Positions 4,033-49,472 of a stretch of DNA of 64,000 nt are shown here, one piece after another. The stretch lies in NCBI GenBank assembly GCA_018402585.1, contig JAGYIO010000003.1, forward strand, positions 140,386 through 204,385, read 5' to 3'. Position numbers and translations under genes: made by a program. This DNA comes from Chthoniobacterales bacterium (GTDB taxonomy: Bacteria; Verrucomicrobiota; Verrucomicrobiia; Chthoniobacterales; JACTMZ01). The notes under the pieces are model-generated. The model did no database searches. It saw only the letters and a program-made list of their open reading frames with translations, and was not told the DNA's origin. Position 1 is the stretch's first letter. The number at the start of each line of letters is the position of its first letter.

Positions 4033-4259
4033 CTTAGCCGTAACCATGCAAAACATTCTGCCACTTCTGGCACGGCCACAGAGGCGCGTCTGGGCGAGAG
4101 TTGACTAACTATTTGGTGAGCGAGTTGGCACGTGGCCAAGGGGGCACGGGCGTCCCGCCCGTCACGACCCGACAACACGGCCGGGACGGCCGTGCCCCCT
4201 GGACAGACCGAGCCAAGCCGCGCTTTTATTGCGTCTTCAACTGCATGGTTACGGCTTAG
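4033..4259 (+). mobile_element. 227-bp MITE-like non-coding element, copy 1
   Basis: Terminal inverted repeats are CCGTAACCATGCA (4038-4050) and TGCATGGTTACGG (4242-4254). CTTAG flanks the element on both sides. A ~23-bp GC hairpin lies inside. Copies of the same length sit at 26144-26370 and 42185-42411. Confidence 0.6.
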
Positions 4260-4666: not shown

Positions 4667-4802
4667 CAGGGGGAACGGGCGTCTCGCCCGTTTTCCGAAA
4701 GACCACCCGGGCGGGACGCCCGCAACCCAAATCATTGGGGTGTGGCATCGGCATCCTGCCGATGGGTTTGGATCGTGACGGGCGGGACGCCCGTGCCCCC
4801 TG
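4667..4802. repeat. Inverted pair of the GGGG(C/A)ACGGGCGTC(C/T)CGCCCGT motif enclosing a CATCGGCATCCTGCCGATG hairpin
   Basis: 4667-4691 (cagggggaacgggcgtctcgcccgt) and 4778-4802 (acgggcgggacgcccgtgccccctg) are near reverse complements. The hairpin CATCGGC-atcct-GCCGATG lies at 4746-4764. The same two modules recur at 49126-49223. Confidence 0.6.
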
Positions 4803-18109: not shown

Positions 18110-19951
18110 TTACCGCAGGACCACACCGGTGAGCGGCGGCAAGGTGAGCAAGCGGGCACTGCCCTCATCTGCACGCAAAACCGCCCCCATCTCACTACTC
18201 GTGGAAAAAAGAATCTCCCCCTCGCCCTCCGTAAGCTGGACGGTCTGCTCCCGATTCGAACGGTTCAGAGCCACCAGGCGCAGGGCATCACCTGCCCCAC
18301 GGCTGTAGACAAAGACGTTCTTCTCATCCTCGGCCGCCAAAACGGAGAATTCCGGCGTCTTGAAGGCTGCATGATCCGCATGCAGCGCTATGGCCTTGCG
18401 GTAGAAACCATGCACTTCTTGGTCGAAGTTCGGATCGTCTTCCTCGCGTGCGCGTCCGATGGGATCGGTTTTCTCGATTTCCATTTGCAGATCAGGCCAT
18501 GGCATCGGCTTGCGGCAGTCCGGGTCATCCCCACCCCAAATGCCTGCTTCGACGCCATAGTAAAACATCGGCGCGCCGACGTAGGTGAGCTGGAACAGCG
18601 TGATCAAGCGCTGGATGGCACGCTCGTCCTCGGCAGGTGCGCGAACCTGGTACCCGGAATTGCTCCGCGCTGAATTACCCGGTTCGTCATAGTCGAACTT
18701 TTCCACGTTTTTGTATTCGCCGGCAGAGTTGCGGTTGATGATCATTTGCGACAGACGGTCGGTGTCATGCGAATCGGTCAAATTCCACAGCGCCAGCTGC
18801 ACATCATCCGAAAATTGAACACGGCGCTCGTTGAGGAGTGCTCCGAAAGCGGATGGCTTGATGCTGTTGTCGATGAGGAAAGCTTTTACCGGCATGGCAA
18901 AGGCATAGTAGTTCATGGCCGCGGAAAATCCGGTCCGCTTGAGGTAGTCCGCCGCATTGGTCCAGACCTCGGGGATGGTGATGGCCTGGGGGTTGATTTG
19001 GAAAACCAGCGCATTCCACTCGCGCCAGAATTTGTCCGGCACCTCTTCCGACACATCGAGCCGCCAGCCGTCGATGCCGTCGCCCGGATCGCCATCACCA
19101 TCCGGGTCCATCCAACGCTTGGTTGCGTTGAAAATGTACTGCTTCGGCCCGGCATGGAGATCGCTGCCGTCCGCATTATTGCGGAATTCGGGCAAGGTGA
19201 AAAATCCGGCCCAACCCGTGACGCGCAATTCATTGCGGCGCGTCTCCGGATCGTCGAAAGATTGGATCGTGAACCAGTCGGCGTAGCGCGACTTCGCGCC
19301 GTTGATCCGGATATCGCGAAACGCAAAAAAGTCGCGCCCCGTATGGTTGAAAACCCCATCGATCACCACCTTGATCCCGCGGTCGTGCGCTTTTCTGATC
19401 AGCTCGAGGAACAGCTTGTCCGCAGCCGTCCACTTCCAAGTCGCCGGATCATCCGTTTCCCCGCCGTGGCGGATGATCTCCAAGTCACCTTCCGGGTCGG
19501 GGCCAAAATTCGGATCAATATGGTGGAACGAGTTACCATCGTATTTGTGCTGCGAACGCCCGTAAAAAACCGGATTGAGCTTGATCGCCGTGACCCCCAG
19601 ATTTTGCAGATAGTCGAGCTTGTCGATCACACCCTGCAGGTCACCGCCGTAACGCCGGTGGAAGACGCCGTTCTCGTAAAAGCTGTCCCCGATCGCCTTT
19701 TCCCACTCGTCACGGACGAAGTAATCGGCTGTCCACGGGGTGACCCGCCATCCACCCACATTCGGGAAATGCATTTCCAGAGTCTCGCGCGTGGGGTCGT
19801 TGGAGGGATCACCATTGCGGAAACGCTCGGGGAAGATTTGATACCATACAGCCGACTTGCCCCAATCGGGGACATTATTCAGCGAGGGCTTTGCCTCCTC
19901 CACCCGGGCCAGAAGAACAAAAATAAGCAAAGGTAAAAAAGGTATTTTCAT
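18110..19951 (-). CDS. Glycoside hydrolase family 13 alpha-amylase-type enzyme (neopullulanase/cyclomaltodextrinase-like), secreted
   Basis: Motifs present: VWYQIFPERFRNGD, GVTAIKLNPVF, VVIDGVFNHTG, GIDGWRLDVSEEV and LTDSHDTDR. The start is moved to ATG 19951 (MKIPFLPLLIFVLLA signal peptide) from the upstream track start at 20011. Confidence 0.88.
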   Translation of the reverse strand: MKIPFLPLLIFVLLARVEEAKPSLNNVPDWGKSAVWYQIFPERFRNGDPSNDPTRETLEMHFPNVGGWRVTPWTADYFVRDEWEKAIGDSFYENGVFHRRYGGDLQGVIDKLDYLQNLGVTAIKLNPVFYGRSQHKYDGNSFHHIDPNFGPDPEGDLEIIRHGGETDDPATWKWTAADKLFLELIRKAHDRGIKVVIDGVFNHTGRDFFAFRDIRINGAKSRYADWFTIQSFDDPETRRNELRVTGWAGFFTLPEFRNNADGSDLHAGPKQYIFNATKRWMDPDGDGDPGDGIDGWRLDVSEEVPDKFWREWNALVFQINPQAITIPEVWTNAADYLKRTGFSAAMNYYAFAMPVKAFLIDNSIKPSAFGALLNERRVQFSDDVQLALWNLTDSHDTDRLSQMIINRNSAGEYKNVEKFDYDEPGNSARSNSGYQVRAPAEDERAIQRLITLFQLTYVGAPMFYYGVEAGIWGGDDPDCRKPMPWPDLQMEIEKTDPIGRAREEDDPNFDQEVHGFYRKAIALHADHAAFKTPEFSVLAAEDEKNVFVYSRGAGDALRLVALNRSNREQTVQLTEGEGEILFSTSSEMGAVLRADEGSARLLTLPPLTGVVLR

Positions 19952-23676: not shown

Positions 23677-26148
23677 ATGTCCGCCCCCAAGCTCACTCCC
23701 ATGATGCGCCAATACCAGGACATCCGCCGCGAGCTTCCCCCCAACACCCTCCTCTTCTTCCGCCTCGGGGACTTTTACGAAATGTTTTTCGACGACGCCC
23801 GCGAAGCGTCTGCCCTCCTCAATGTCGCCCTGACCAAACGCGGCGACACCCCCATGTGCGGCGTCCCCTACCACAGCGCCCGCGCCTACGTGGCCAAACT
23901 GGTCGAAGCCGGCAAACGCGTCGCGATCTGCGACCAAGTCGGCGAAGTCACTCCCGGCCAACTCGTCCGTCGCCAAATCGCCCGCATCCTCAGTGCCGGC
24001 ACGCTCGACGACTTCGGCCTCGAGGAAAACCGCCACAACTACCTCGCCGCGGTCTGCCCGGAGAAAAAATCCTCCGGCCTCGCCTGGCTCGATCTCAGCA
24101 CCGGCGAATTCCGCCTCGCCGAAATCGAATCGCCCGCCCAACTCGCCGACCAACTCGCCCGCCTCCAACCAAGCGAACTCCTCATCCCCGACCACCTCGA
24201 GACCACCCCCGACCTCCCGCTGCCCCCCACCCCGCACGACGCCTTCGCCTTCGACCTGACCCAGGCCACCGACCTCCTCTGCGACCACTTCCGCGTGCAA
24301 TCCCTCGACGGCCTGGGCTGCACCGATCTCCCGCACGGCACCCGTGCCGCCGGCGCCCTCCTCCATTACATCACCCGCAGCCTCCGCCGCGACGCACAAC
24401 ACCTCGCGCCCCCGAAACCCTGGCACGCCACATCCTACCTCCTCCTCGACGCCGTCACCCAAACCAACCTCGAACTCGTCGAATCCCGCAGCCCCGAAGG
24501 CACCAGCCTTCGCGGCGCCATCGACCGCACCCTCACTCCGATGGGCGCCCGCCTGCTCCGCGAATGGATCCTCCACCCGCTCCGCGATCTCGCCGCCATC
24601 ACCCACCGCCAAGACCTCGTCGCCGCTTTCCATGATGACCCCACCCGCCTCGCCGCGATACGCGACATCCTCCGCGACATCCGCGACATGGAACGCGCCG
24701 TCTCCCGCCTCAGCCTCGCCTCCGGCAACGCCCGCGATCTCGTCGCGCTGAAAACCTCCCTTGCCCTCCTCCCGTCCCTCCGCGCCACCCTCGCCGAAAA
24801 CGACACCTCCCCGCTCCTCGCCCTCGCCGCCGACCTCCGCACCTTCGACCCGCTCGTCGTCCTCCTCGAATCCGCCGTGGTCGACGAACCCCCGCCGACC
24901 CTCCGCGACGGCGGCATGATCCGCGAGGGCTACAACCCCGACCTCGACGAACTCCGCCGCGCCGGCACCGAAGGACGCCGCTGGATCGCCGAACTGCAAG
25001 ACCGCGAAATCGCCCGCACCGGCATCAAGTCGCTCAAAATCCGCTACAACTCCGTCTTCGGCTACTACCTCGAAGTGACCAAATCCAATCTCGCCTCCGT
25101 CCCCCACGACTACACCCGCAAACAAACCACCGCCAACTCGGAGCGCTTCATCACCCAGGAGCTGAAAGAAATGGAAGGCCGCATCCTCGGCGGCGAAGAA
25201 CGCGCCCGCGCCCTCGAGTCGGAAATCTTCGGCCAACTCCGCACCGCCGTCCTCGCCGAATTGGCCTCGCTCCAACACACCGCCCGCGCCGTGGCCCAGA
25301 TCGACACCCTTGCCGGACTCGCCGAAACCGCCCGCACCTTCCGCTACATCCGCCCGAAACTCACCGCCACCGGCGCGATCAAAATCACCGACGGACGCCA
25401 CCCCGTCCTCGACCAAACCATGCCCGCCGGGCGCTTCGTGCCCAACGACACCGCGCTCGACACCGACGCCCCCCGCCTCGTCATCCTCACCGGCCCCAAC
25501 ATGGCCGGCAAAAGCACCTACATCCGCCAGGTCGCCCTCCTCGTCCTCCTCGCCCAGACCGGCAGTTTCATTCCCGCGGCCGAAGCCGAGATCGGACTGG
25601 TCGACCGCATCTTCACCCGCGTCGGCGCGAGCGACGACCTGGCGCGCGGACAATCCACCTTCATGGTCGAGATGAACGAAACCGCCGCCATCCTCAACAA
25701 CGCCACCGACCGCAGCCTCGTCATCCTCGACGAAATCGGCCGCGGCACCTCCACCTTCGACGGCCTCTCCATCGCCTGGAGCGTGGCCGAGCACCTCCAC
25801 GACGTCACCGCCTGCCGCACCCTTTTCGCCACGCATTACCACGAACTCACCGACCTGGCCCGCACCCGCCGCGGCGTGACCAACTGCAACATCGCGGTCC
25901 GCGAATGGAACGACGACATCATCTTCCTCCGCAAAATCATCCCCGGCCCCGCCGACCAAAGCTACGGCATCCAAGTTGCCCGCCTCGCCGGCCTGCCCGA
26001 ACCGATCCTCAAACGCGCCCGCGAAATCCTGACCAACCTGGAAAACTCCGAACTCACCGCCGAAGGCAAACCGGCGCTAGCCGAAAAACGCCCCCGCGCC
26101 CACAAACTCCGCGCCTTCACCGACCAACTCGACCTCTTCGAGTCCTAG
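23677..26148 (+). CDS. mutS: DNA mismatch repair protein MutS
   Basis: Motifs present: TPMMRQYQDIRRELPPNTLLFFRLGDFYEMFFDDA, GPNMAGKSTY Walker A, and DEIGRGTSTFDG. The stop TAG (26146-26148) lies inside the terminal CCTAG of the MITE-like element. Confidence 0.97.
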   Translation: MSAPKLTPMMRQYQDIRRELPPNTLLFFRLGDFYEMFFDDAREASALLNVALTKRGDTPMCGVPYHSARAYVAKLVEAGKRVAICDQVGEVTPGQLVRRQIARILSAGTLDDFGLEENRHNYLAAVCPEKKSSGLAWLDLSTGEFRLAEIESPAQLADQLARLQPSELLIPDHLETTPDLPLPPTPHDAFAFDLTQATDLLCDHFRVQSLDGLGCTDLPHGTRAAGALLHYITRSLRRDAQHLAPPKPWHATSYLLLDAVTQTNLELVESRSPEGTSLRGAIDRTLTPMGARLLREWILHPLRDLAAITHRQDLVAAFHDDPTRLAAIRDILRDIRDMERAVSRLSLASGNARDLVALKTSLALLPSLRATLAENDTSPLLALAADLRTFDPLVVLLESAVVDEPPPTLRDGGMIREGYNPDLDELRRAGTEGRRWIAELQDREIARTGIKSLKIRYNSVFGYYLEVTKSNLASVPHDYTRKQTTANSERFITQELKEMEGRILGGEERARALESEIFGQLRTAVLAELASLQHTARAVAQIDTLAGLAETARTFRYIRPKLTATGAIKITDGRHPVLDQTMPAGRFVPNDTALDTDAPRLVILTGPNMAGKSTYIRQVALLVLLAQTGSFIPAAEAEIGLVDRIFTRVGASDDLARGQSTFMVEMNETAAILNNATDRSLVILDEIGRGTSTFDGLSIAWSVAEHLHDVTACRTLFATHYHELTDLARTRRGVTNCNIAVREWNDDIIFLRKIIPGPADQSYGIQVARLAGLPEPILKRAREILTNLENSELTAEGKPALAEKRPRAHKLRAFTDQLDLFES

Positions 26149-26370
26149 CCGTAACAATGCAAAACAATCTGCCTTTTCCGGCGCTGCCACAGAGGCGCGC
26201 CTGGGCGAGAGTTGACTAACTGTTTGGCGAGCGAGTTGGTACGTAGCCAAGGGGCACGGGCGTCCCGCCCGTCACGATCAGACAGCACGGCCGGGGACGG
26301 CCGTGCCCCCTGGAAAAACCGAGCCAAGCCGCGCTTTTATTGCGTCTCCGACTGCATGGATACGGCTTAG
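26144..26370 (+). mobile_element. 227-bp MITE-like element, copy 2 (the most diverged copy)
   Basis: The TIRs are CCGTAACAATGCA (26149-26161) and TGCATGGATACGG (26353-26365). The flanks are CCTAG and CTTAG. The core GGGGCACGGGCGTCCCGCCCGTCACG...CCGTGCCCCC is conserved. Confidence 0.6.
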
Positions 26371-26384
26371 CGTCTTAAACATCT

Positions 26385-26448
26385 GTAGCGGCGCCGTCCC
26401 CGGCGCCGGCCGTTAACCTAAGCTTGTAGCGGCGGTCTACGACCGCCG
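26385..26448. repeat. Two tandem TGTAGCGGCG-type hairpins (REP-like)
   Basis: The first is tgtag-CGGCGCCG-tccc-CGGCGCCG at 26385-26408. The second is tgtag-CGGCGGTC-tac-GACCGCCG at 26426-26448. Related GTAGCG/GTAGGG-led hairpins lie at 21941, 29734 and 54608. Confidence 0.6.
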
Positions 26449-26452
26449 GAAC

Positions 26453-26836
26453 CTATCCCTCCAACCCAGAGCAAAACTCCCGAAAAGCCCTCTCCTCTTC
26501 CGCCGTCGCTACCCCCGCCACAATGTGCCCCGCGAGACTCCTCACAACCAGTTTCCGCGCCGCCGGCAAGTCCAACTGATTGATCACGTCACGGATGATC
26601 GCCGCAAAAGTGTTTCCATTGTAAAAACAGAAAGCAGCGCCGCGATGACAACGCCTGCACAATTCGACAGCTTCATTGAGCGTTGTCTCTTGAAGGTAAT
26701 GACTCTCCCAGAGCTGCCGCGTGACTTCGTGCCCGTCCGATGTCGGCTTATGCAGAGCACTCTTTGCCGAGCATAGCATCGCATTTTGCGCGGTCACAAA
26801 CTCCCAAGAGTAGTCGCGCAGCCACACCCGCTTCAT
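26453..26836 (-). CDS. Hypothetical protein (127 aa), second gene of a low-GC orphan pair
   Basis: It is the only long ORF here, and no family was recognised. Its start lies 3 nt after the stop of the 62-aa ORF. A hand count gives ~48% G+C for 26581-26700, against visibly GC-richer flanks. Confidence 0.55.
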   Translation of the reverse strand: MKRVWLRDYSWEFVTAQNAMLCSAKSALHKPTSDGHEVTRQLWESHYLQETTLNEAVELCRRCHRGAAFCFYNGNTFAAIIRDVINQLDLPAARKLVVRSLAGHIVAGVATAEEERAFREFCSGLEG

Positions 26837-26839
26837 GGC

Positions 26840-27028
26840 TCAGCTTTTGTACGGTTGCTTCTTCTTGATTTCCTGCAACTCCGCAACGCCGCGGCTCTTC
26901 AAATAGCCTTTGCCCGTCTTGGCGTAAACGGGCTCCGCGCTGAATTGATCCTGAATCGCCAAACCCTCGCGCAGGACCCGCTGAAATACCGGATTCTCCA
27001 ACATCTCCGGATTGATCACCGGCTTCAT
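26840..27028 (-). CDS. Hypothetical small protein (62 aa), first gene of the orphan pair
   Basis: MKPVINPEMLENPVFQRVLREGLAIQDQFSAEPVYAKTGKGYLKSRGVAELQEIKKKQPYKS. It is tightly coupled to the downstream ORF, and no family was recognised. Confidence 0.45.
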   Translation of the reverse strand: MKPVINPEMLENPVFQRVLREGLAIQDQFSAEPVYAKTGKGYLKSRGVAELQEIKKKQPYKS

Positions 27029-27158
27029 GGCTGAACTATACCATCACTCCATCCTCCACGCAAAGCCCCCATCCGTCTCCTCTCCGCGCCATCCGCAGTT
27101 CCCCTCCCAACCCCACCCGCGATTGACACCCCTCTCACTCCTCAAAGACACTCCCCCG

Positions 27159-27971
27159 ATGCCCATCCTGCATTTCCAAAAGATGAACGGCGCCGGCAAT
27201 GACTTCGTCCTGCTCGACAACCGCGACGGTTCACTCTCCCTCACCGACACTCAAATCGCCCGCCTTTGCCACCGCCACCGCGGCGTCGGGGCCGACGGAC
27301 TCCTCCTCGTGGAAAAGCCCGAAGCCCAAGCCGACTTCCGCATGCGTTATTACAACGCCGACGGCCGCGAAGCCGAGATGTGCGGCAACGGCGCCCGCTG
27401 CTTTGCCCGATTCGTCCACCAACTCGCGCCCGCCAAGAACGGCACCGTCACCTTTGAAACCCCGGCCGGCCTCATCTCCGCCACCCTGCGCGGCGACCAA
27501 GTCTCCCTCGGCATGAGTCAACCCGGTCCCTGCGCCCCTGGCGTGGAACTCGACGCTGCCGGAAAAGCACTCACCGTCTACTCGATCCATACCGGCGTCC
27601 CGCACGCCGTGGTCCTGGTCGACGACCTGGACGGCACCGACGTCCATCCGCTCGGCGCCGCCCTCCGCCATCACCATCACTTCCAACCCCGCGGGACCAA
27701 CGTCAATTTTGTCCGCCAGCTCGGACCCCAAGACCTCGCCATCCGCACCTACGAGCGCGGCGTCGAAGCCGAAACCCTGGCCTGCGGCACCGGCGTGGTC
27801 GCCGCCGCCCTGACCATCGCCACCCTCACCGGCGCCGAGTCCCCCCTCCGCGTGCTGGTCAAAGGCGGCGACACCCTGAGCGTTGATTTCCTCCCCGCCA
27901 AGGAAGGCTTCTCCCACGTCATCCTGACCGGCCCCGCCGATTTCGTCTTCAAAGGCGAGATACCAGTCTGA
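27159..27971 (+). CDS. dapF: Diaminopimelate epimerase
   Basis: MPILHFQKMNGAGNDFVLLDNR, EMCGNGARC and ETLACGTG provide the two catalytic Cys contexts. The start is moved to ATG 27159, because the track extension from 27012 is P/S-rich and unlike DapF. Confidence 0.93.
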   Translation: MPILHFQKMNGAGNDFVLLDNRDGSLSLTDTQIARLCHRHRGVGADGLLLVEKPEAQADFRMRYYNADGREAEMCGNGARCFARFVHQLAPAKNGTVTFETPAGLISATLRGDQVSLGMSQPGPCAPGVELDAAGKALTVYSIHTGVPHAVVLVDDLDGTDVHPLGAALRHHHHFQPRGTNVNFVRQLGPQDLAIRTYERGVEAETLACGTGVVAAALTIATLTGAESPLRVLVKGGDTLSVDFLPAKEGFSHVILTGPADFVFKGEIPV

Positions 27972-29936: not shown

Positions 29937-30926
29937 CTACCCTTTCTCCGGTTCTTTGCGTTTGAGAAAATCGAGGGCCGCGCGGAAACGCTCTTCGTTC
30001 TCCGGCGACGAAGCAGCCAAGGCTTCGTGCGCCTCGACCATGGTGCCTCGCTTGTATTCTTTGGTGGCGGCGAGAGCCAAGTTCTCCATTTCGTCCCGGG
30101 CCGGCGGAGCCGCTTCGAAGCCTTGGAAAGCCAGCACCCGGTCCAAGCCGTAGCGACTGAAAAGCGCTTCGACCTTGGCGTTGACCCGCGTGAAACCGAT
30201 GCGACCGCGCGGATCCTCACGCAGACGCAGGGCCAAACCGGTCAGGATGCCGAGGAAGGTCGAGTCCATCATCTCGCACCCCTGCAGATCGAAAGCAAAC
30301 GACCGGTGGCCGGCCTCGAACATCTGTTCGGTATGGGCGCGCAGGGTCGCACCGTTCTGAAAGGTGCCGTGACCGTCGACCCGCAGCCAAACCGTGCCAC
30401 GAGTGACCAGTGTCCGCGTTTCGGCGGCCCGCAGCGCAGGACGGAATGTGGCCAGCGCTTGCTGACGCAGGACTTCACGGTCGTATTCCTTCCTCGGCTC
30501 AACCCGGAGCACCGGCAAGTCCGCCTTGGCCAGTGCCATATCGAAAAACTCGGCATCCACATGGTGACGCGGTTCGCCACGGTCAAACTCAATCACGCCG
30601 ACGATTTGTCCGTTGTCCGGCGTGCAGACCACGAAGTCGGCATGCTCCAAGCGGAGGCGGGCCAGTGCGCCGTGACGCCAGGCCGCGAAGGCGGCAGGGG
30701 AAGGGCGGACCACGTCAGCCAGACTGACCTTGGCAAATATTTCAAACTCGGGAGAGAGTGCGCGCCGCGCCGTGGCCACAAAACGCTTCTCCTCCTCATC
30801 CAAAAGCGCAGCAGCCTTGCTGTAAGACACCGACTTTGTCCCGCGCCGCCGCCATCCACGCAGCCCCCAGATCAACCCTGCGGTGATGGCCGCGCCGAGC
30901 AGGAGACCTAAAGCAAAAAACGTCAC
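29937..30926 (-). CDS. Membrane-anchored DUF2726 (PD-(D/E)xK/NERD-like) plus STAS domain fusion protein
   Basis: There is an N-terminal TM (FFALGLLLGAAITAGLIWGL). The DUF2726-like pattern is LLDEEEKRFVATARRAL...FAKVSLADVV...ADFVVCTPDNGQIVGVIEFD...ADLPVLRV. The STAS-like part is FAFDLQGCEMMDSTFLGILTGLALRL...VNAKVEALFSRYGLDRVL. Confidence 0.7.
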   Translation of the reverse strand: MTFFALGLLLGAAITAGLIWGLRGWRRRGTKSVSYSKAAALLDEEEKRFVATARRALSPEFEIFAKVSLADVVRPSPAAFAAWRHGALARLRLEHADFVVCTPDNGQIVGVIEFDRGEPRHHVDAEFFDMALAKADLPVLRVEPRKEYDREVLRQQALATFRPALRAAETRTLVTRGTVWLRVDGHGTFQNGATLRAHTEQMFEAGHRSFAFDLQGCEMMDSTFLGILTGLALRLREDPRGRIGFTRVNAKVEALFSRYGLDRVLAFQGFEAAPPARDEMENLALAATKEYKRGTMVEAHEALAASSPENEERFRAALDFLKRKEPEKG

Positions 30927-42208: not shown

Positions 42209-42411
42209 TCTGCCATTTCTGGCACGGCCACAGAGTCGCGTCTGGGCGAGAGTTGACTAACTATTTGGTGAGCGAGGTGGCACGTCGCCAAGGGGGCACG
42301 GGCGTCCCGCCCGTCACGACCCGACAACACGGCCGGGACGGCCGTGCCCCCTGGACAAACCGAACCAAGCCGCGCTTTTATTGCGTCTTCAATTGCATGG
42401 TTACGGCTTAG
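42185..42411 (+). mobile_element. 227-bp MITE-like element, copy 3
   Basis: The TIRs are CCGTAACCAGGCA (42190-42202) and TGCATGGTTACGG (42394-42406). CTTAG lies on both flanks. A hand alignment finds 8 mismatches against copy 1. Confidence 0.6.
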
Positions 42412-47615: not shown

Positions 47616-49109
47616 ATGAGTAAACTTCTCCCCTGCCCGCTCTTCATCGGCGGCGAATGGACCAACGTCTCCGGCGTCGCCACCACCCCCGTGCACAACC
47701 CCTCGGTCGGCGAAGTCATCGCCGAAACCCCGCTCTGCGGCGCCGCAGTGGTCGACCAAGCTGCCCGTGCCGCCGCCGACGCCTTCCCCGCTTGGATGGA
47801 AACCCCGCCGGTCGAGCGCGCCCGCGTTCTCATGAGGCTCAAGGTCCTCCTCGAGGAACATTTCGAGGAGTTGGCCCAAGGCGTGACCCGCGAGCACGGC
47901 AAAACCCTCGCCGAAGCGCGGGGCGACGTCCGCCGCGGACTGGAAAACATCGAGTTCGCCTGCGGTGCCCCGACCCTCCTCATGGGCGAGTCGCTCGAAA
48001 ACGTGGCCCGCGGCATCGACTGCGATTCCATCCGCCAGCCCCTCGGTGTTGTGGCCGGCATCACCCCCTTCAACTTCCCCGCCATGGTCCCTCTCTGGAT
48101 GTGGCCCATGGCCATCGCCTGCGGCAACACTTTCATCCTCAAACCGAGCGAAAAAGTCCCGCTCACCTCGGTCCGCATCGCGCAACTCGCGCAAAAAGCC
48201 GGACTCCCCGACGGCGTGCTCAACCTCGTGCACGGCGGACGCGAAGCCGTCGACGCCATCCTGCGGCACCCGACGATCAAAGCGATTTCCTTCGTCGGCT
48301 CCACGCCCATCGCGAAATACATCTTCGAAACCGGCACCGCCCACGGCAAACGCGTGCAAGCCGCCGGCGGGGCGAAAAATTTCGTCCTCATCATGCCCGA
48401 TGCCGACGTGGCCAACTCCGCCACCGGCCTGGTCGAATCCGCCTTTGGGTGCGCCGGCGAACGCTGCATGGCCAGTTCCACCGCCATCGCCATCGGTGAC
48501 GCCGCGCACACCGTGCTTCCCGCGCTGGTCAATGTCGTCTCGAAAATCCGTGTCGGCCCGACCGACCGCGACCCGCAAGCCCAGATGGGCGCCGTCATTT
48601 CCCGCGAACACGCCGACCGCGTCTGCAACCTCATCACCCAAGCGGCCGACGAGGGCGCCAAGCCGCTGACCGACGGACGCCAGACTAAAGTCGCCGCCGC
48701 CCCGAAAGGCTTCTACGTCGGTCCCACCGTCCTCGACCACGTCCTCCCCGACATGATCACCATGCGGGAAGAAGTTTTCGGTCCCGTGCTCAACGTCGTC
48801 CGTATGGAAGACCTCGACAGCGCGATCAACCTGGCCAATGCCTCGATCTACGGCAACGGTGCCGCCATCTTCACCCGCAGCGGCAAAGCAGCCCGCGAGT
48901 TCCGCCACCGCATCCAAGCCGGCATGGTCGGCGTCAACATCGGCGTCCCCGCTCCCATGGCCTTCTTCCCCTTCAGCGGATGGAACCAATCCTTCTTCGG
49001 CGACCTCCACATCCAAGGCCGCGAAAGCGTCGCCTTCTACACCCAACACAAAGTCACCACCACCCGCTGGTTCAGCTACGGGGAAGGTTCTATTTGGAGT
49101 GACAAGTGA
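47616..49109 (+). CDS. mmsA: CoA-acylating methylmalonate/malonate-semialdehyde dehydrogenase
   Basis: Motifs present: FIGGEWT, FNFPAMVPLWMWPMAIACGNTFILKPSE and FGCAGERCMA (the catalytic Cys). The start is moved to ATG 47616, because the track extension from 47118 is R/P-rich shadow sequence overlapping preA. Confidence 0.9.
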   Translation: MSKLLPCPLFIGGEWTNVSGVATTPVHNPSVGEVIAETPLCGAAVVDQAARAAADAFPAWMETPPVERARVLMRLKVLLEEHFEELAQGVTREHGKTLAEARGDVRRGLENIEFACGAPTLLMGESLENVARGIDCDSIRQPLGVVAGITPFNFPAMVPLWMWPMAIACGNTFILKPSEKVPLTSVRIAQLAQKAGLPDGVLNLVHGGREAVDAILRHPTIKAISFVGSTPIAKYIFETGTAHGKRVQAAGGAKNFVLIMPDADVANSATGLVESAFGCAGERCMASSTAIAIGDAAHTVLPALVNVVSKIRVGPTDRDPQAQMGAVISREHADRVCNLITQAADEGAKPLTDGRQTKVAAAPKGFYVGPTVLDHVLPDMITMREEVFGPVLNVVRMEDLDSAINLANASIYGNGAAIFTRSGKAAREFRHRIQAGMVGVNIGVPAPMAFFPFSGWNQSFFGDLHIQGRESVAFYTQHKVTTTRWFSYGEGSIWSDK

Positions 49110-49125
49110 CGCAGGCATTCGGGCC

Positions 49126-49223
49126 CAGGGGGCACGGGCGTCCCGCCCGTCACGAAATTCACCAACGTGGCATCGGCTTCCAGCCGATGGTCTTCCTTCA
49201 ACATCGGCTGGAAGCCGATGCCA
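49126..49223. repeat. GGGGCACGGGCGTCCCGCCCGTCACG motif followed by a perfect 22-bp inverted repeat of CATCGGC-type hairpins
   Basis: 49126-49154 is cagggggcacgggcgtcccgcccgtcacg. 49168-49189 (tggcatcggcttccagccgatg) and 49202-49223 (catcggctggaagccgatgcca) are exact reverse complements separated by 12 nt. Each arm is also self-complementary. Confidence 0.7.
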
Positions 49224-49472
49224 CTAAACGGCGAAGCCCAGCGTGCTCATTCATTGAAAGCCATGTTGTCACTCTTTCGGACAATTTTCATCAGGCCGCT
49301 GGCAATCTCCGCACGAGCTCTTGCAACCGCCTCAATCACTTCCTCGCACACCAAAAGCTCGTCTTCAACTTTACCATCAGGTAACGCGTCAGCATGGGTT
49401 TGCCTCAGGTTATTCCAGCACTGCAGCTTCGTGCGGATTCCTCTCCAAGTAAACATCTGAGCAAACTCCCTT

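Follow-up and report, generated by a model that had tools for sequence, protein, structure and literature searches.

A 64,000-nt stretch of a Chthoniobacterales genome (contig JAGYIO010000003.1), referred to below as the window, carries a cassette of two minus-strand genes that encode proteins of 62 and 127 amino acids (aa), here called the small and the large protein. An earlier interpretation made from the letters of this DNA (the sequence-only reading) had placed the two open reading frames 3 nt apart between mutS and dapF. Both the frames and their spacing are present as described (Table 1), and Pfam identifies the flanking genes as MutS (23677-26148, plus strand) and DapF (27159-27971, plus strand), with DapA and DapB after DapF. 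We argue below that the two proteins are predicted to bind each other and may have been re-used in evolution as a connector, including in type I-G CRISPR-Cas operons, and we tentatively read the pair as a Fic/Doc-like module of toxin–antitoxin type. L-numbers and P-numbers are the locus and protein labels of this analysis.

Table 1. Features of the cassette and its immediate surroundings, in window coordinates
Feature	Position	Strand	Remark
Small-protein gene, 62 aa	26840-27028	-	From the open reading frame list; first gene of the operon
Large-protein gene, 127 aa	26453-26836	-	From the open reading frame list; second gene of the operon
Spacer, small-gene stop to large-gene ATG	26837-26839	-	3 nt, read from the sequence; TGA at 26840-26842, ATG at 26834-26836
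Promoter-like element	27035-27063	-	-35 TTGCGT at 27058-27063, 17-nt spacer, -10 TATAGT at 27035-27040
Conserved core of the small protein, residues 23-48, LAIQDQFSAEPVYAKTGKGYLKSRGV	26885-26962	-	Invariant or near-invariant columns
Conserved loop and helix start of the large protein, residues 67-78, AAFCFYNGNTFA	26603-26638	-	Apparent position of the Fic/Doc motif; consensus APFxFxNGNTFA
Hyper-divergent block, cassette plus both intergenic regions	26150-27120		Bounded by conserved mutS and dapF
Palindromic element, REP/MITE-like, ~110 nt	26225-26335		Borders the cassette, outside the conserved module
Two G+C-rich hairpins	26384-26411, 26425-26448		Just past the large-gene stop, between convergent cassette and mutS

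The sequence-only reading had called the two genes orphans, a description that does not survive database searches. At E<=0.01, the large protein has 1336 homologues and the small protein 534, almost all from Verrucomicrobiota, the group to which every organism named by a source belongs. A HMMER scan of 1.84 billion cluster representatives recovered 365 representatives of the large protein (50%-identity clusters, E<=1e-3). At least 163 species-representative genomes (one genome per species) encode it, a lower bound that comes from a pattern-based scan. The 80 carriers that were fetched are almost all labelled Verrucomicrobiota, among them Prosthecobacter, Luteolibacter, Akkermansiaceae and some metagenome-assembled genomes (MAGs) labelled Chthoniobacter; Brevifollis gellanilyticus NBRC 108608 (L081) is a cultured carrier. 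Neither protein matches a Pfam, NCBIfam, PADLOC or PHROGs model above chance level, and matches to DUF7792, Cas7a and phrog_22877 fell far below threshold. The cassette therefore belongs to an unannotated two-protein family with more than 1300 large-subunit sequences.

The sequence-only reading had made its proposal depend on conservation and coding signal, and both were found in the two genes. Against relatives, the ratio of non-synonymous to synonymous substitution rates (dN/dS) is 0.09-0.32 for each gene. Across 18 relatives that share 66-86% identity, some 45 alignment columns of the large protein do not change, and its conserved blocks include HKPTSDGH, CRRCHR, APFCFYNGNTFA and RSLAGHIVAGV. 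In the small protein the invariant core reads LAIQD.F.AEPVYAKTGKG.LK, within which Y35, T38 and K40 never vary. Judged by these homologues and substitution patterns, both genes are real and under purifying selection.

The two genes also travel together. In each of the 85 related loci, the large gene is immediately preceded by the small one, and distant members (~45% identity) retain the small-then-large arrangement, so the pair does recur elsewhere, which the sequence-only reading had made the second support of its proposal. The intergenic gap is 3 nt in 51 of the 85 loci, a 4-nt overlap of the ATGA type in 12 and 2 nt in 5, so that a 3-nt gap or 4-nt overlap accounts for 63; by this geometry, the pair is translationally coupled. 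From locus to locus, pairwise identities of the small protein rise and fall with those of the large protein (r=0.53), and single-chain fusions in the order small-then-large, confirmed on DNA, occur in at least three lineages (P0270, P0257, P0246). Because the partners are never apart, diverge together and are fused small-then-large in several lineages, they probably form a specific complex. In its gene organization, the cassette has one of the traits of a type II toxin–antitoxin locus: two small, co-directional, coupled genes that are inherited together.

Alignment of the loci on the small-gene start codon revealed a shared promoter-like element. In 69 of 82 loci a TTGnnn-N15-19-TAnnnT pattern stops 5-7 nt short of the ATG, and in 1 of 82 it has another offset; in the window 6 nt separate it from the ATG at 27028. 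A leader would not fit into this distance, and the bicistronic mRNA of the operon is therefore probably leaderless. A generic sigma-70 scan found no promoter, because the -35 element is TTGCnn, and the element is seen only in the cross-locus alignment.

Fusions of the large domain connect the family to type I-G CRISPR-Cas. P0244, present on 7 contigs, joins two parts in one chain: a large domain, which shares 58% identity with the window protein, and after it a canonical Fic domain whose motif is HPFPDFNGRVIR. Its matches to PADLOC PDC-S04 (2e-18) and SoFic (1e-10) belong to this Fic domain, not to the large-family domain. At L166:794-9770, P0244 is encoded in a type I-G operon in the order Cas3g, P0244, Cas8g, Cas7g, Cas5/6g, Cas4-Cas1. 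The Cas3g profile ends at residue 849. Beyond that point, the last ~47 residues of the L166 Cas3g show homology to the small protein (independent E-value 3e-11), and tblastn with this tail matched more than 50 small genes, the window's included. The conserved small-protein core is retained both in the fused proteins and in the Cas3g C-terminal tail. A second I-G locus (L171:6100-13900) again combines a Cas3g bearing a small-like tail, a large domain and Cas8g, and its Cas proteins are only 36-55% identical to those of L166. From these fusion and Cas3g layouts, we take the two proteins to be probable binding partners that evolution appears to have re-used as a connector.

Our full-text literature searches turned up no description of this Cas3g-tail/large-domain accessory, and the type I-G effector paper (PMC9638904) does not mention it. 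The fused member P0257 adjoins an MmeI-type restriction-modification system and HipBA. By gene neighbourhood, the CRISPR-Cas and restriction/HipBA loci place the family in defence contexts. Separately, P0297 (L167:1363-2049) carries a GntR-type winged helix-turn-helix (wHTH; E 5e-15) before its large domain in one chain; no small gene was called upstream of it, on a short contig.

We next consider the fold of the large protein. Its AlphaFold2 model, built from 117 sequences, is a confident six-helix bundle (pLDDT 93, pTM 0.87) with helices at residues 11-24, 36-46, 53-66, 73-86, 92-107 and 112-126. When this model was compared with the PDB by Foldseek, chains of the phage P1 Doc toxin (3dd7, 3k33) ranked 1, 3 and 4, with probabilities of 0.85, 0.80 and 0.66 and template-modelling (TM) scores of 0.50-0.56 over 118-122 columns, essentially all of Doc. 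Some 17 further Fic chains stood in the top 50 (VbhT, Bep1, FICD, CdFic), for about 20 Fido proteins in total. The most conserved segment of the family, xPFxFxNGNTF (residues 67-77), forms in the model the loop between helices 53-66 and 73-86; in the wide family, P68, F69, N73, T76 and F77 hardly vary. Fido proteins carry their motif HPFx[D/E]GN[G/K]R, which in Doc reads HxFx[D/N][A/G]NKR, between the two central helices (PMC2686095), a place that the large-protein loop appears to share; of the motif itself the loop keeps only P, F, N and G. HMMER aligns the loop, non-significantly, with HPFPDFNGR of the canonical Fic domain of P0244, and a permissive hhalign run with Doc is colinear over 119 columns and places the motifs 1-3 residues apart, again non-significantly. 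In the window allele the loop reads AAFCFYNGNTF, with Ala68 (codon 26633-26635) where at least 90% of members have Pro; its other invariant positions are intact. Taken together, a Fido-like fold is moderately supported by the model, and the large protein is plausibly a very divergent, Doc-sized helical domain of Fido type; its membership of the Fic/Doc family is not established.

Precedents exist for Fido folds with a decayed motif, namely EcFicT (PMC5033356) and BepC and Bep8 (PMC8401265), and degenerate Bep FIC motifs also keep PF and NG (PMC8401265). AvrB has a Fido fold and is a rhamnosyltransferase (PMC10866546). Since the catalytic His and both Arg are lost, the large protein is probably unable to AMPylate or phosphorylate in the canonical manner.

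Two other assignments of the large protein were tried and rejected. An HNH nuclease was suggested by a weak match to McrA (E 0.56) together with HKPTSDGH...N...CRRCH; the model is all-helical with no beta-hairpin, and no HNH Pfam match was obtained for the window protein or the family members scanned. A GntR/FadR FCD domain was suggested by the P0297 fusion; there was no FCD Pfam match, and no GntR-family structure was among the top Foldseek matches. A search of viral folds in BFVD returned nothing meaningful. One sub-family (P0248, P0277, P0329, P0357 and P0379, the last at L176:5001-5537) has a C-terminal extension of ~50 aa that resembles a small KOW/SH3-type beta domain (weak DUF2642 and KOW6 matches), with the small gene still upstream.

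The conserved cysteines and histidines of the large protein raise a different explanation, in which a Cys/His-rich protein binds Zn or forms disulfides and releases or captures the small protein under stress, by analogy with anti-sigma or chaperone-holdase switches. The residues concerned would be C22, C60, C63, H64, C70, H29, H36 and H104. Within the Verrucomicrobiales clade, CRRCH, HKPTSDGH, C22, C70 and H104 show little or no variation, and the McrA match falls on a Cys-rich HNH region. Yet over the wide family near-invariance is limited to C22 and H104, sigma factors and stress genes do not recur around the 82 loci, and the model contains no beta-beta-alpha-Me element. We regard such a redox or metal switch as improbable; the invariant C22 and H104 and the clade-specific Cys/His cluster stand as candidate functional sites.

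The small protein is predicted to be helical (AlphaFold2, pLDDT 77). A match of its profile to the designed di-haem protein 4D2 (E 3e-5) was dismissed as a repetitive compositional coincidence, with no single stretch of it significant. Its invariant Y35, T38 and K40 lie inside the conserved motif, where they could mark it as a peptide substrate that the large protein modifies or processes (for example at Y35 or T38) into the functional product. Fido enzymes do modify Tyr and Thr (PMC2686095), and AvrB, with a Fido fold and no canonical His, is still an enzyme (PMC10866546). Against this, the 82 loci have no conserved export, protease or further tailoring genes nearby, in the small protein the centre, not a leader, is what is conserved, and the single-chain fusions and the Cas3g tail better fit a binding partner than a released product. 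We think an enzyme–substrate relation very doubtful.

The cassette is compositionally distinct from its neighbours. Its G+C content is 55.7%, versus 66-67% in mutS and dapF, and it falls in the lowest 1% of 576-nt windows of the stretch (mean 62.8%, sd 2.7); the ~48% previously counted by hand over 26581-26700 is 47.5% on recount. G+C at third codon positions (GC3) is 0.66 in the 127-aa gene and 0.75 in the 62-aa gene, and 0.78-0.86 in neighbouring genes. The sequence-only reading had taken this composition as foreign: the low G+C stands, its value as a mark of recent arrival does not. Because the cassette lies below its flanks in 80 of 85 related loci (mean -4.4 points) and its GC3 tracks host G+C (r=0.51), the low G+C is best read as a family trait and not as a sign of recent arrival in this genome; recent foreign DNA as its source is ruled out by the same two observations. 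Two other parts of the window, 18300-19950 and 48900-49300, are as poor in G+C as the cassette (0.545-0.57 in 576-nt windows), and the first holds a 389-aa open reading frame (18767-19933) with GC3 0.59 and no Pfam match.

Composition also bears on the null explanation, that chance or decayed frames without function lie in a recently acquired, A+T-richer insert. The G+C and GC3 below those of the neighbours would fit it, as would the repeat elements that adjoin the cassette. It is contradicted by hundreds of full-length homologues at dN/dS 0.1-0.3, by the conserved promoter and coupling geometry, by the confident structure prediction, and by the lack of any tRNA, integrase or Rfam element in the cassette region. 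Conservation refutes this explanation, and we give it virtually no credence.

Comparison with the closest relatives at the same site uncovered unusual allele divergence. Between the window and L023, MutS is 97.7%, DapF 93.3% and DapA 94.2% identical, whereas identity falls to 69% and 61% in the cassette proteins. In nucleotides, identity is 90-100% in the flanks and 35-80% across the block 26150-27120, and the drop is confined to approximately that block; compared as units, the flanks are 93-99% and the cassette 57-77% identical. Synonymous divergence (dS) amounts to 0.9-1.7 for the cassette; for mutS, dapF and dapA it is 0.13-0.22. The seven mutS-dapF loci fall into two allele clades, {window, L006, L007} and {L023, L016, L017, L021}, that are incongruent with MutS relatedness. 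By these comparisons, the cassette alleles would be older than the genome split at the same site, through either recombinational replacement or an old maintained polymorphism. Diverged copies also coexist in single genomes: L010 and L043 are in the same MAG, L071 and L077 are on the same contig ~45 kb apart, and the copies are 65-74% identical. The allele pattern and the paralogues look more like properties of a conflict-type accessory module than of a housekeeping one.

Across the wider family, the cassette occupies several genomic settings. Synteny groups among 82 loci comprise mutS/dapF (7, including the window), DUF1501/PSD1 (~15), purH (8) and others, with no conserved third gene. A JGI metagenome scan with DapF retrieved only distant relatives (<=62% identity), none of which had mutS or the cassette beside dapF.

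Taken together, we tentatively interpret the pair as a Fic/Doc-like binding pair of toxin–antitoxin type with a putative toxicity, an interpretation built on analogy that we consider quite possible and short of probable. The mode of action would be that of Phd-Doc or of a class I Fic module (FicA-FicT): made first and in excess from a leaderless message, the small protein would bind the larger effector and neutralise or gate it, as Phd does Doc and FicA does FicT; the large protein would act through target binding or a different chemistry. The locus would be a conflict or addiction-type accessory module in which recombination swaps divergent alleles at one fixed place in the chromosome, with the coexistence of diverged paralogues in one genome as part of the same behaviour. 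Addiction-like or frequency-dependent selection may maintain the module, and this would account for the swapping of alleles. Elsewhere among bacteria, this binding pair would link Cas3g to a downstream gene able to carry an active Fic domain. The sequence-only reading had likewise suggested a toxin–antitoxin or other accessory module. That suggestion holds in part, through the Doc/Fic structural matches, the gene order and sizes, the allele exchange, the paralogues and the CRISPR and defence contexts, and it is weakened by the failed profile tests, the missing catalytic His and the lack of any mobile-element, plasmid or phage link.

Several results weigh against this toxin–antitoxin-type interpretation. 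The Foldseek matches to Fic and Doc are weak (E 0.4-5, TM 0.3-0.56, root-mean-square deviation 5-6 Å), and the catalytic His and both Arg are missing in every member of the large family. PF02661 matches neither the window protein (E<=10) nor any of 67 diverse members (E<=1); as a positive control, the C-terminal domain of P0244 matches it at 4e-10. Profile–profile comparison by hhalign of the family with 35 Doc homologues gave probabilities of 0.1-0.5% and E 0.12-0.4. In PADLOC-DB 2.0, the large protein has only the chance-level Cas7a match (E 0.021) and the small protein none. The small protein has no fold match in the PDB, and neither kind of domain expected of an antitoxin is recognisable in it: together with 24 homologues it yielded no helix-turn-helix, ribbon-helix-helix, AbrB or Phd family, and [S/T]xxxE[G/N], the inhibitory helix motif of class I Fic antitoxins (PMC5033356), does not occur in its conserved core LAIQDQFSAEPVYAKTGKG. 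Both proteins are 55-83% identical across families, above typical antitoxin conservation. Around the 82 loci no integrase or transposase recurs, many loci sit among housekeeping genes with lineage-level synteny, and no family member was found in PLSDB plasmids or INPHARED phages.

Several of these points favour the main rival, a non-toxic docking or regulatory pair, in which the large protein would be a pseudo-enzyme that does no more than recognise the small one as its tag, and their complex would control or scaffold some other process. At type I-G loci the pair would tether an accessory domain to Cas3g; as a stand-alone pair it would serve a lineage-specific physiological role in Verrucomicrobiales, as proposed for the vertically inherited EcFicTA. 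Loss of the catalytic residues in all members, strong conservation of both partners, housekeeping synteny within lineages without mobile-element genes nearby, and the absence of the family from PLSDB and INPHARED would all be expected of such a pair. The tag-plus-receptor layout at Cas3g fits as well, the GntR wHTH fusion of P0297 suggests a regulatory use, and EcFicTA itself is vertically transmitted and has a degenerate motif (PMC5033356). However, a 5-13-fold excess of synonymous divergence and allele clades incongruent with the flanks are unexpected of a pure housekeeping pair, as are divergent paralogues in one genome and a family-wide compositional offset, and the presence of the family looks patchy (at least 163 species representatives by the pattern-based scan). 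On balance, we rate the docking pair as somewhat unlikely.

A bolder form of the toxin–antitoxin-type interpretation joins the stand-alone and CRISPR-associated loci. Here the two proteins would be a portable addiction pair of tag and receptor: alone, a new toxin–antitoxin family built on a Fido-like pseudo-enzyme, and in some type I-G loci a CRISPR safeguard. The antitoxin-like tag would be fused to the Cas3g C-terminus and the receptor to an active Fic toxin, so that loss, degradation or inhibition of Cas3g, for instance by an anti-CRISPR, would free the Fic toxin and lead to cell death or arrest. If true, CRISPR-Cas would have in the pair a safeguard made of protein, or a back-up through abortive infection. 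We consider this extension unlikely.

Repeats lie on one side of the cassette. The sequence-only reading had noted there an element resembling a miniature inverted-repeat transposable element (MITE) and two hairpins of repetitive extragenic palindromic (REP) type, and repeat copies and a shared hairpin arm now bear this out. The ~110-nt element has near-identical copies at 4115-4225 and 42267-42377, making three in 64 kb, and further, partial copies lie near 4670-4799 and 49129. For the core 22-mer of the element, GGGGCACGGGCGTCCCGCCCGT, 8 occurrences were counted in the window against 0.02 expected. The element is missing from the mutS-cassette spacer of the relatives L006 and L007. The hairpins share the arm TGTAGCGGCG, at 26384 and 26425, as a direct repeat combined with palindromes, and the region 26150-26452 folds with z = -4.05; no intrinsic terminator was called at 26384-26448, where the hairpins have no T-run. 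Scans of the cassette region for tRNA genes and Rfam families found no element. Just downstream of dapB, and convergent with it, lies a gene for a 329-aa protein with DUF2726 and STAS domains (29937-30926, minus strand).

If the Fic/Doc-like interpretation is correct, the Fic/Doc world would extend to a Doc-sized domain that lacks the canonical catalytic residues and has a dedicated partner, which raises the question of what role such a pseudo-enzyme plays. The site between mutS and dapF would be a clean natural case of allele replacement at a fixed position, and the undescribed I-G accessory might give access to how Cas3 is regulated or to how CRISPR is coupled to abortive infection. The cultured B. 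gellanilyticus strain makes experiments feasible.

Among known systems, the pair compares as a Fic/Doc-type two-gene module that fails that family's defining tests. The nearest in layout is Phd-Doc of phage P1, whose Doc is a Fido-fold EF-Tu kinase: gene order and sizes are the same, with a small partner followed by an all-helical protein of ~126 aa. In the structural search the 127-aa protein matched Doc best (probability 0.85, TM 0.50-0.56), and in Doc as in the predicted model a conserved loop between central helices leads into a helix. In Doc, too, the fold is complete only once a partner contributes a helix (PMC2686095). Unlike Doc, the window protein has no HxFx[D/N][A/G]NKR motif, no catalytic His and no profile-level similarity. 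The window's small protein is all-helical, with no Phd/YefM Pfam match, and the window family is chromosomal, confined to Verrucomicrobiota and a few other metagenomic lineages, and was not found in PLSDB plasmids or INPHARED phages.

Class I Fic modules (VbhA-VbhT, EcFicA-EcFicT) are alike in encoding a helical protein of ~60 aa immediately upstream of a Fido-fold protein, and many of the top 50 structural matches of the large protein are Fic proteins. Relatives that carry the small part at the N-terminus of the large one in a single chain resemble class II Fic proteins (PMC5033356, PMC3667792), and we count the degenerate motif and vertical inheritance of EcFicT (PMC5033356) as a further likeness. 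The differences are that the window's large protein is Doc-sized, without the beta-hairpin flap and extra helices, that its motif keeps only PF..NG with no PF02661 match, and that the small protein does not have [S/T]xxxE[G/N].

BepC, Bep8-type FIC proteins and AvrB resemble the window family in keeping the fold while the signature motif has decayed to PFxxGN-like remnants; BepC acts by target binding and AvrB by rhamnosylation (PMC8401265, PMC10866546). These are secreted, host-targeted effectors that profiles recognise, whereas the window family is predicted to be cytoplasmic, tiny and paired with a dedicated small protein. A last parallel comes from within CRISPR-Cas itself. CreTA is an RNA toxin–antitoxin pair in a type I-B cas operon that depends on Cascade, so that losing a cas component unleashes the toxin. 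The present arrangement differs in that both parts would be protein and the subtype is I-G; the L166 layout, with a Cas3g tail and a large-domain-Fic protein encoded next to each other, suggests the likeness.

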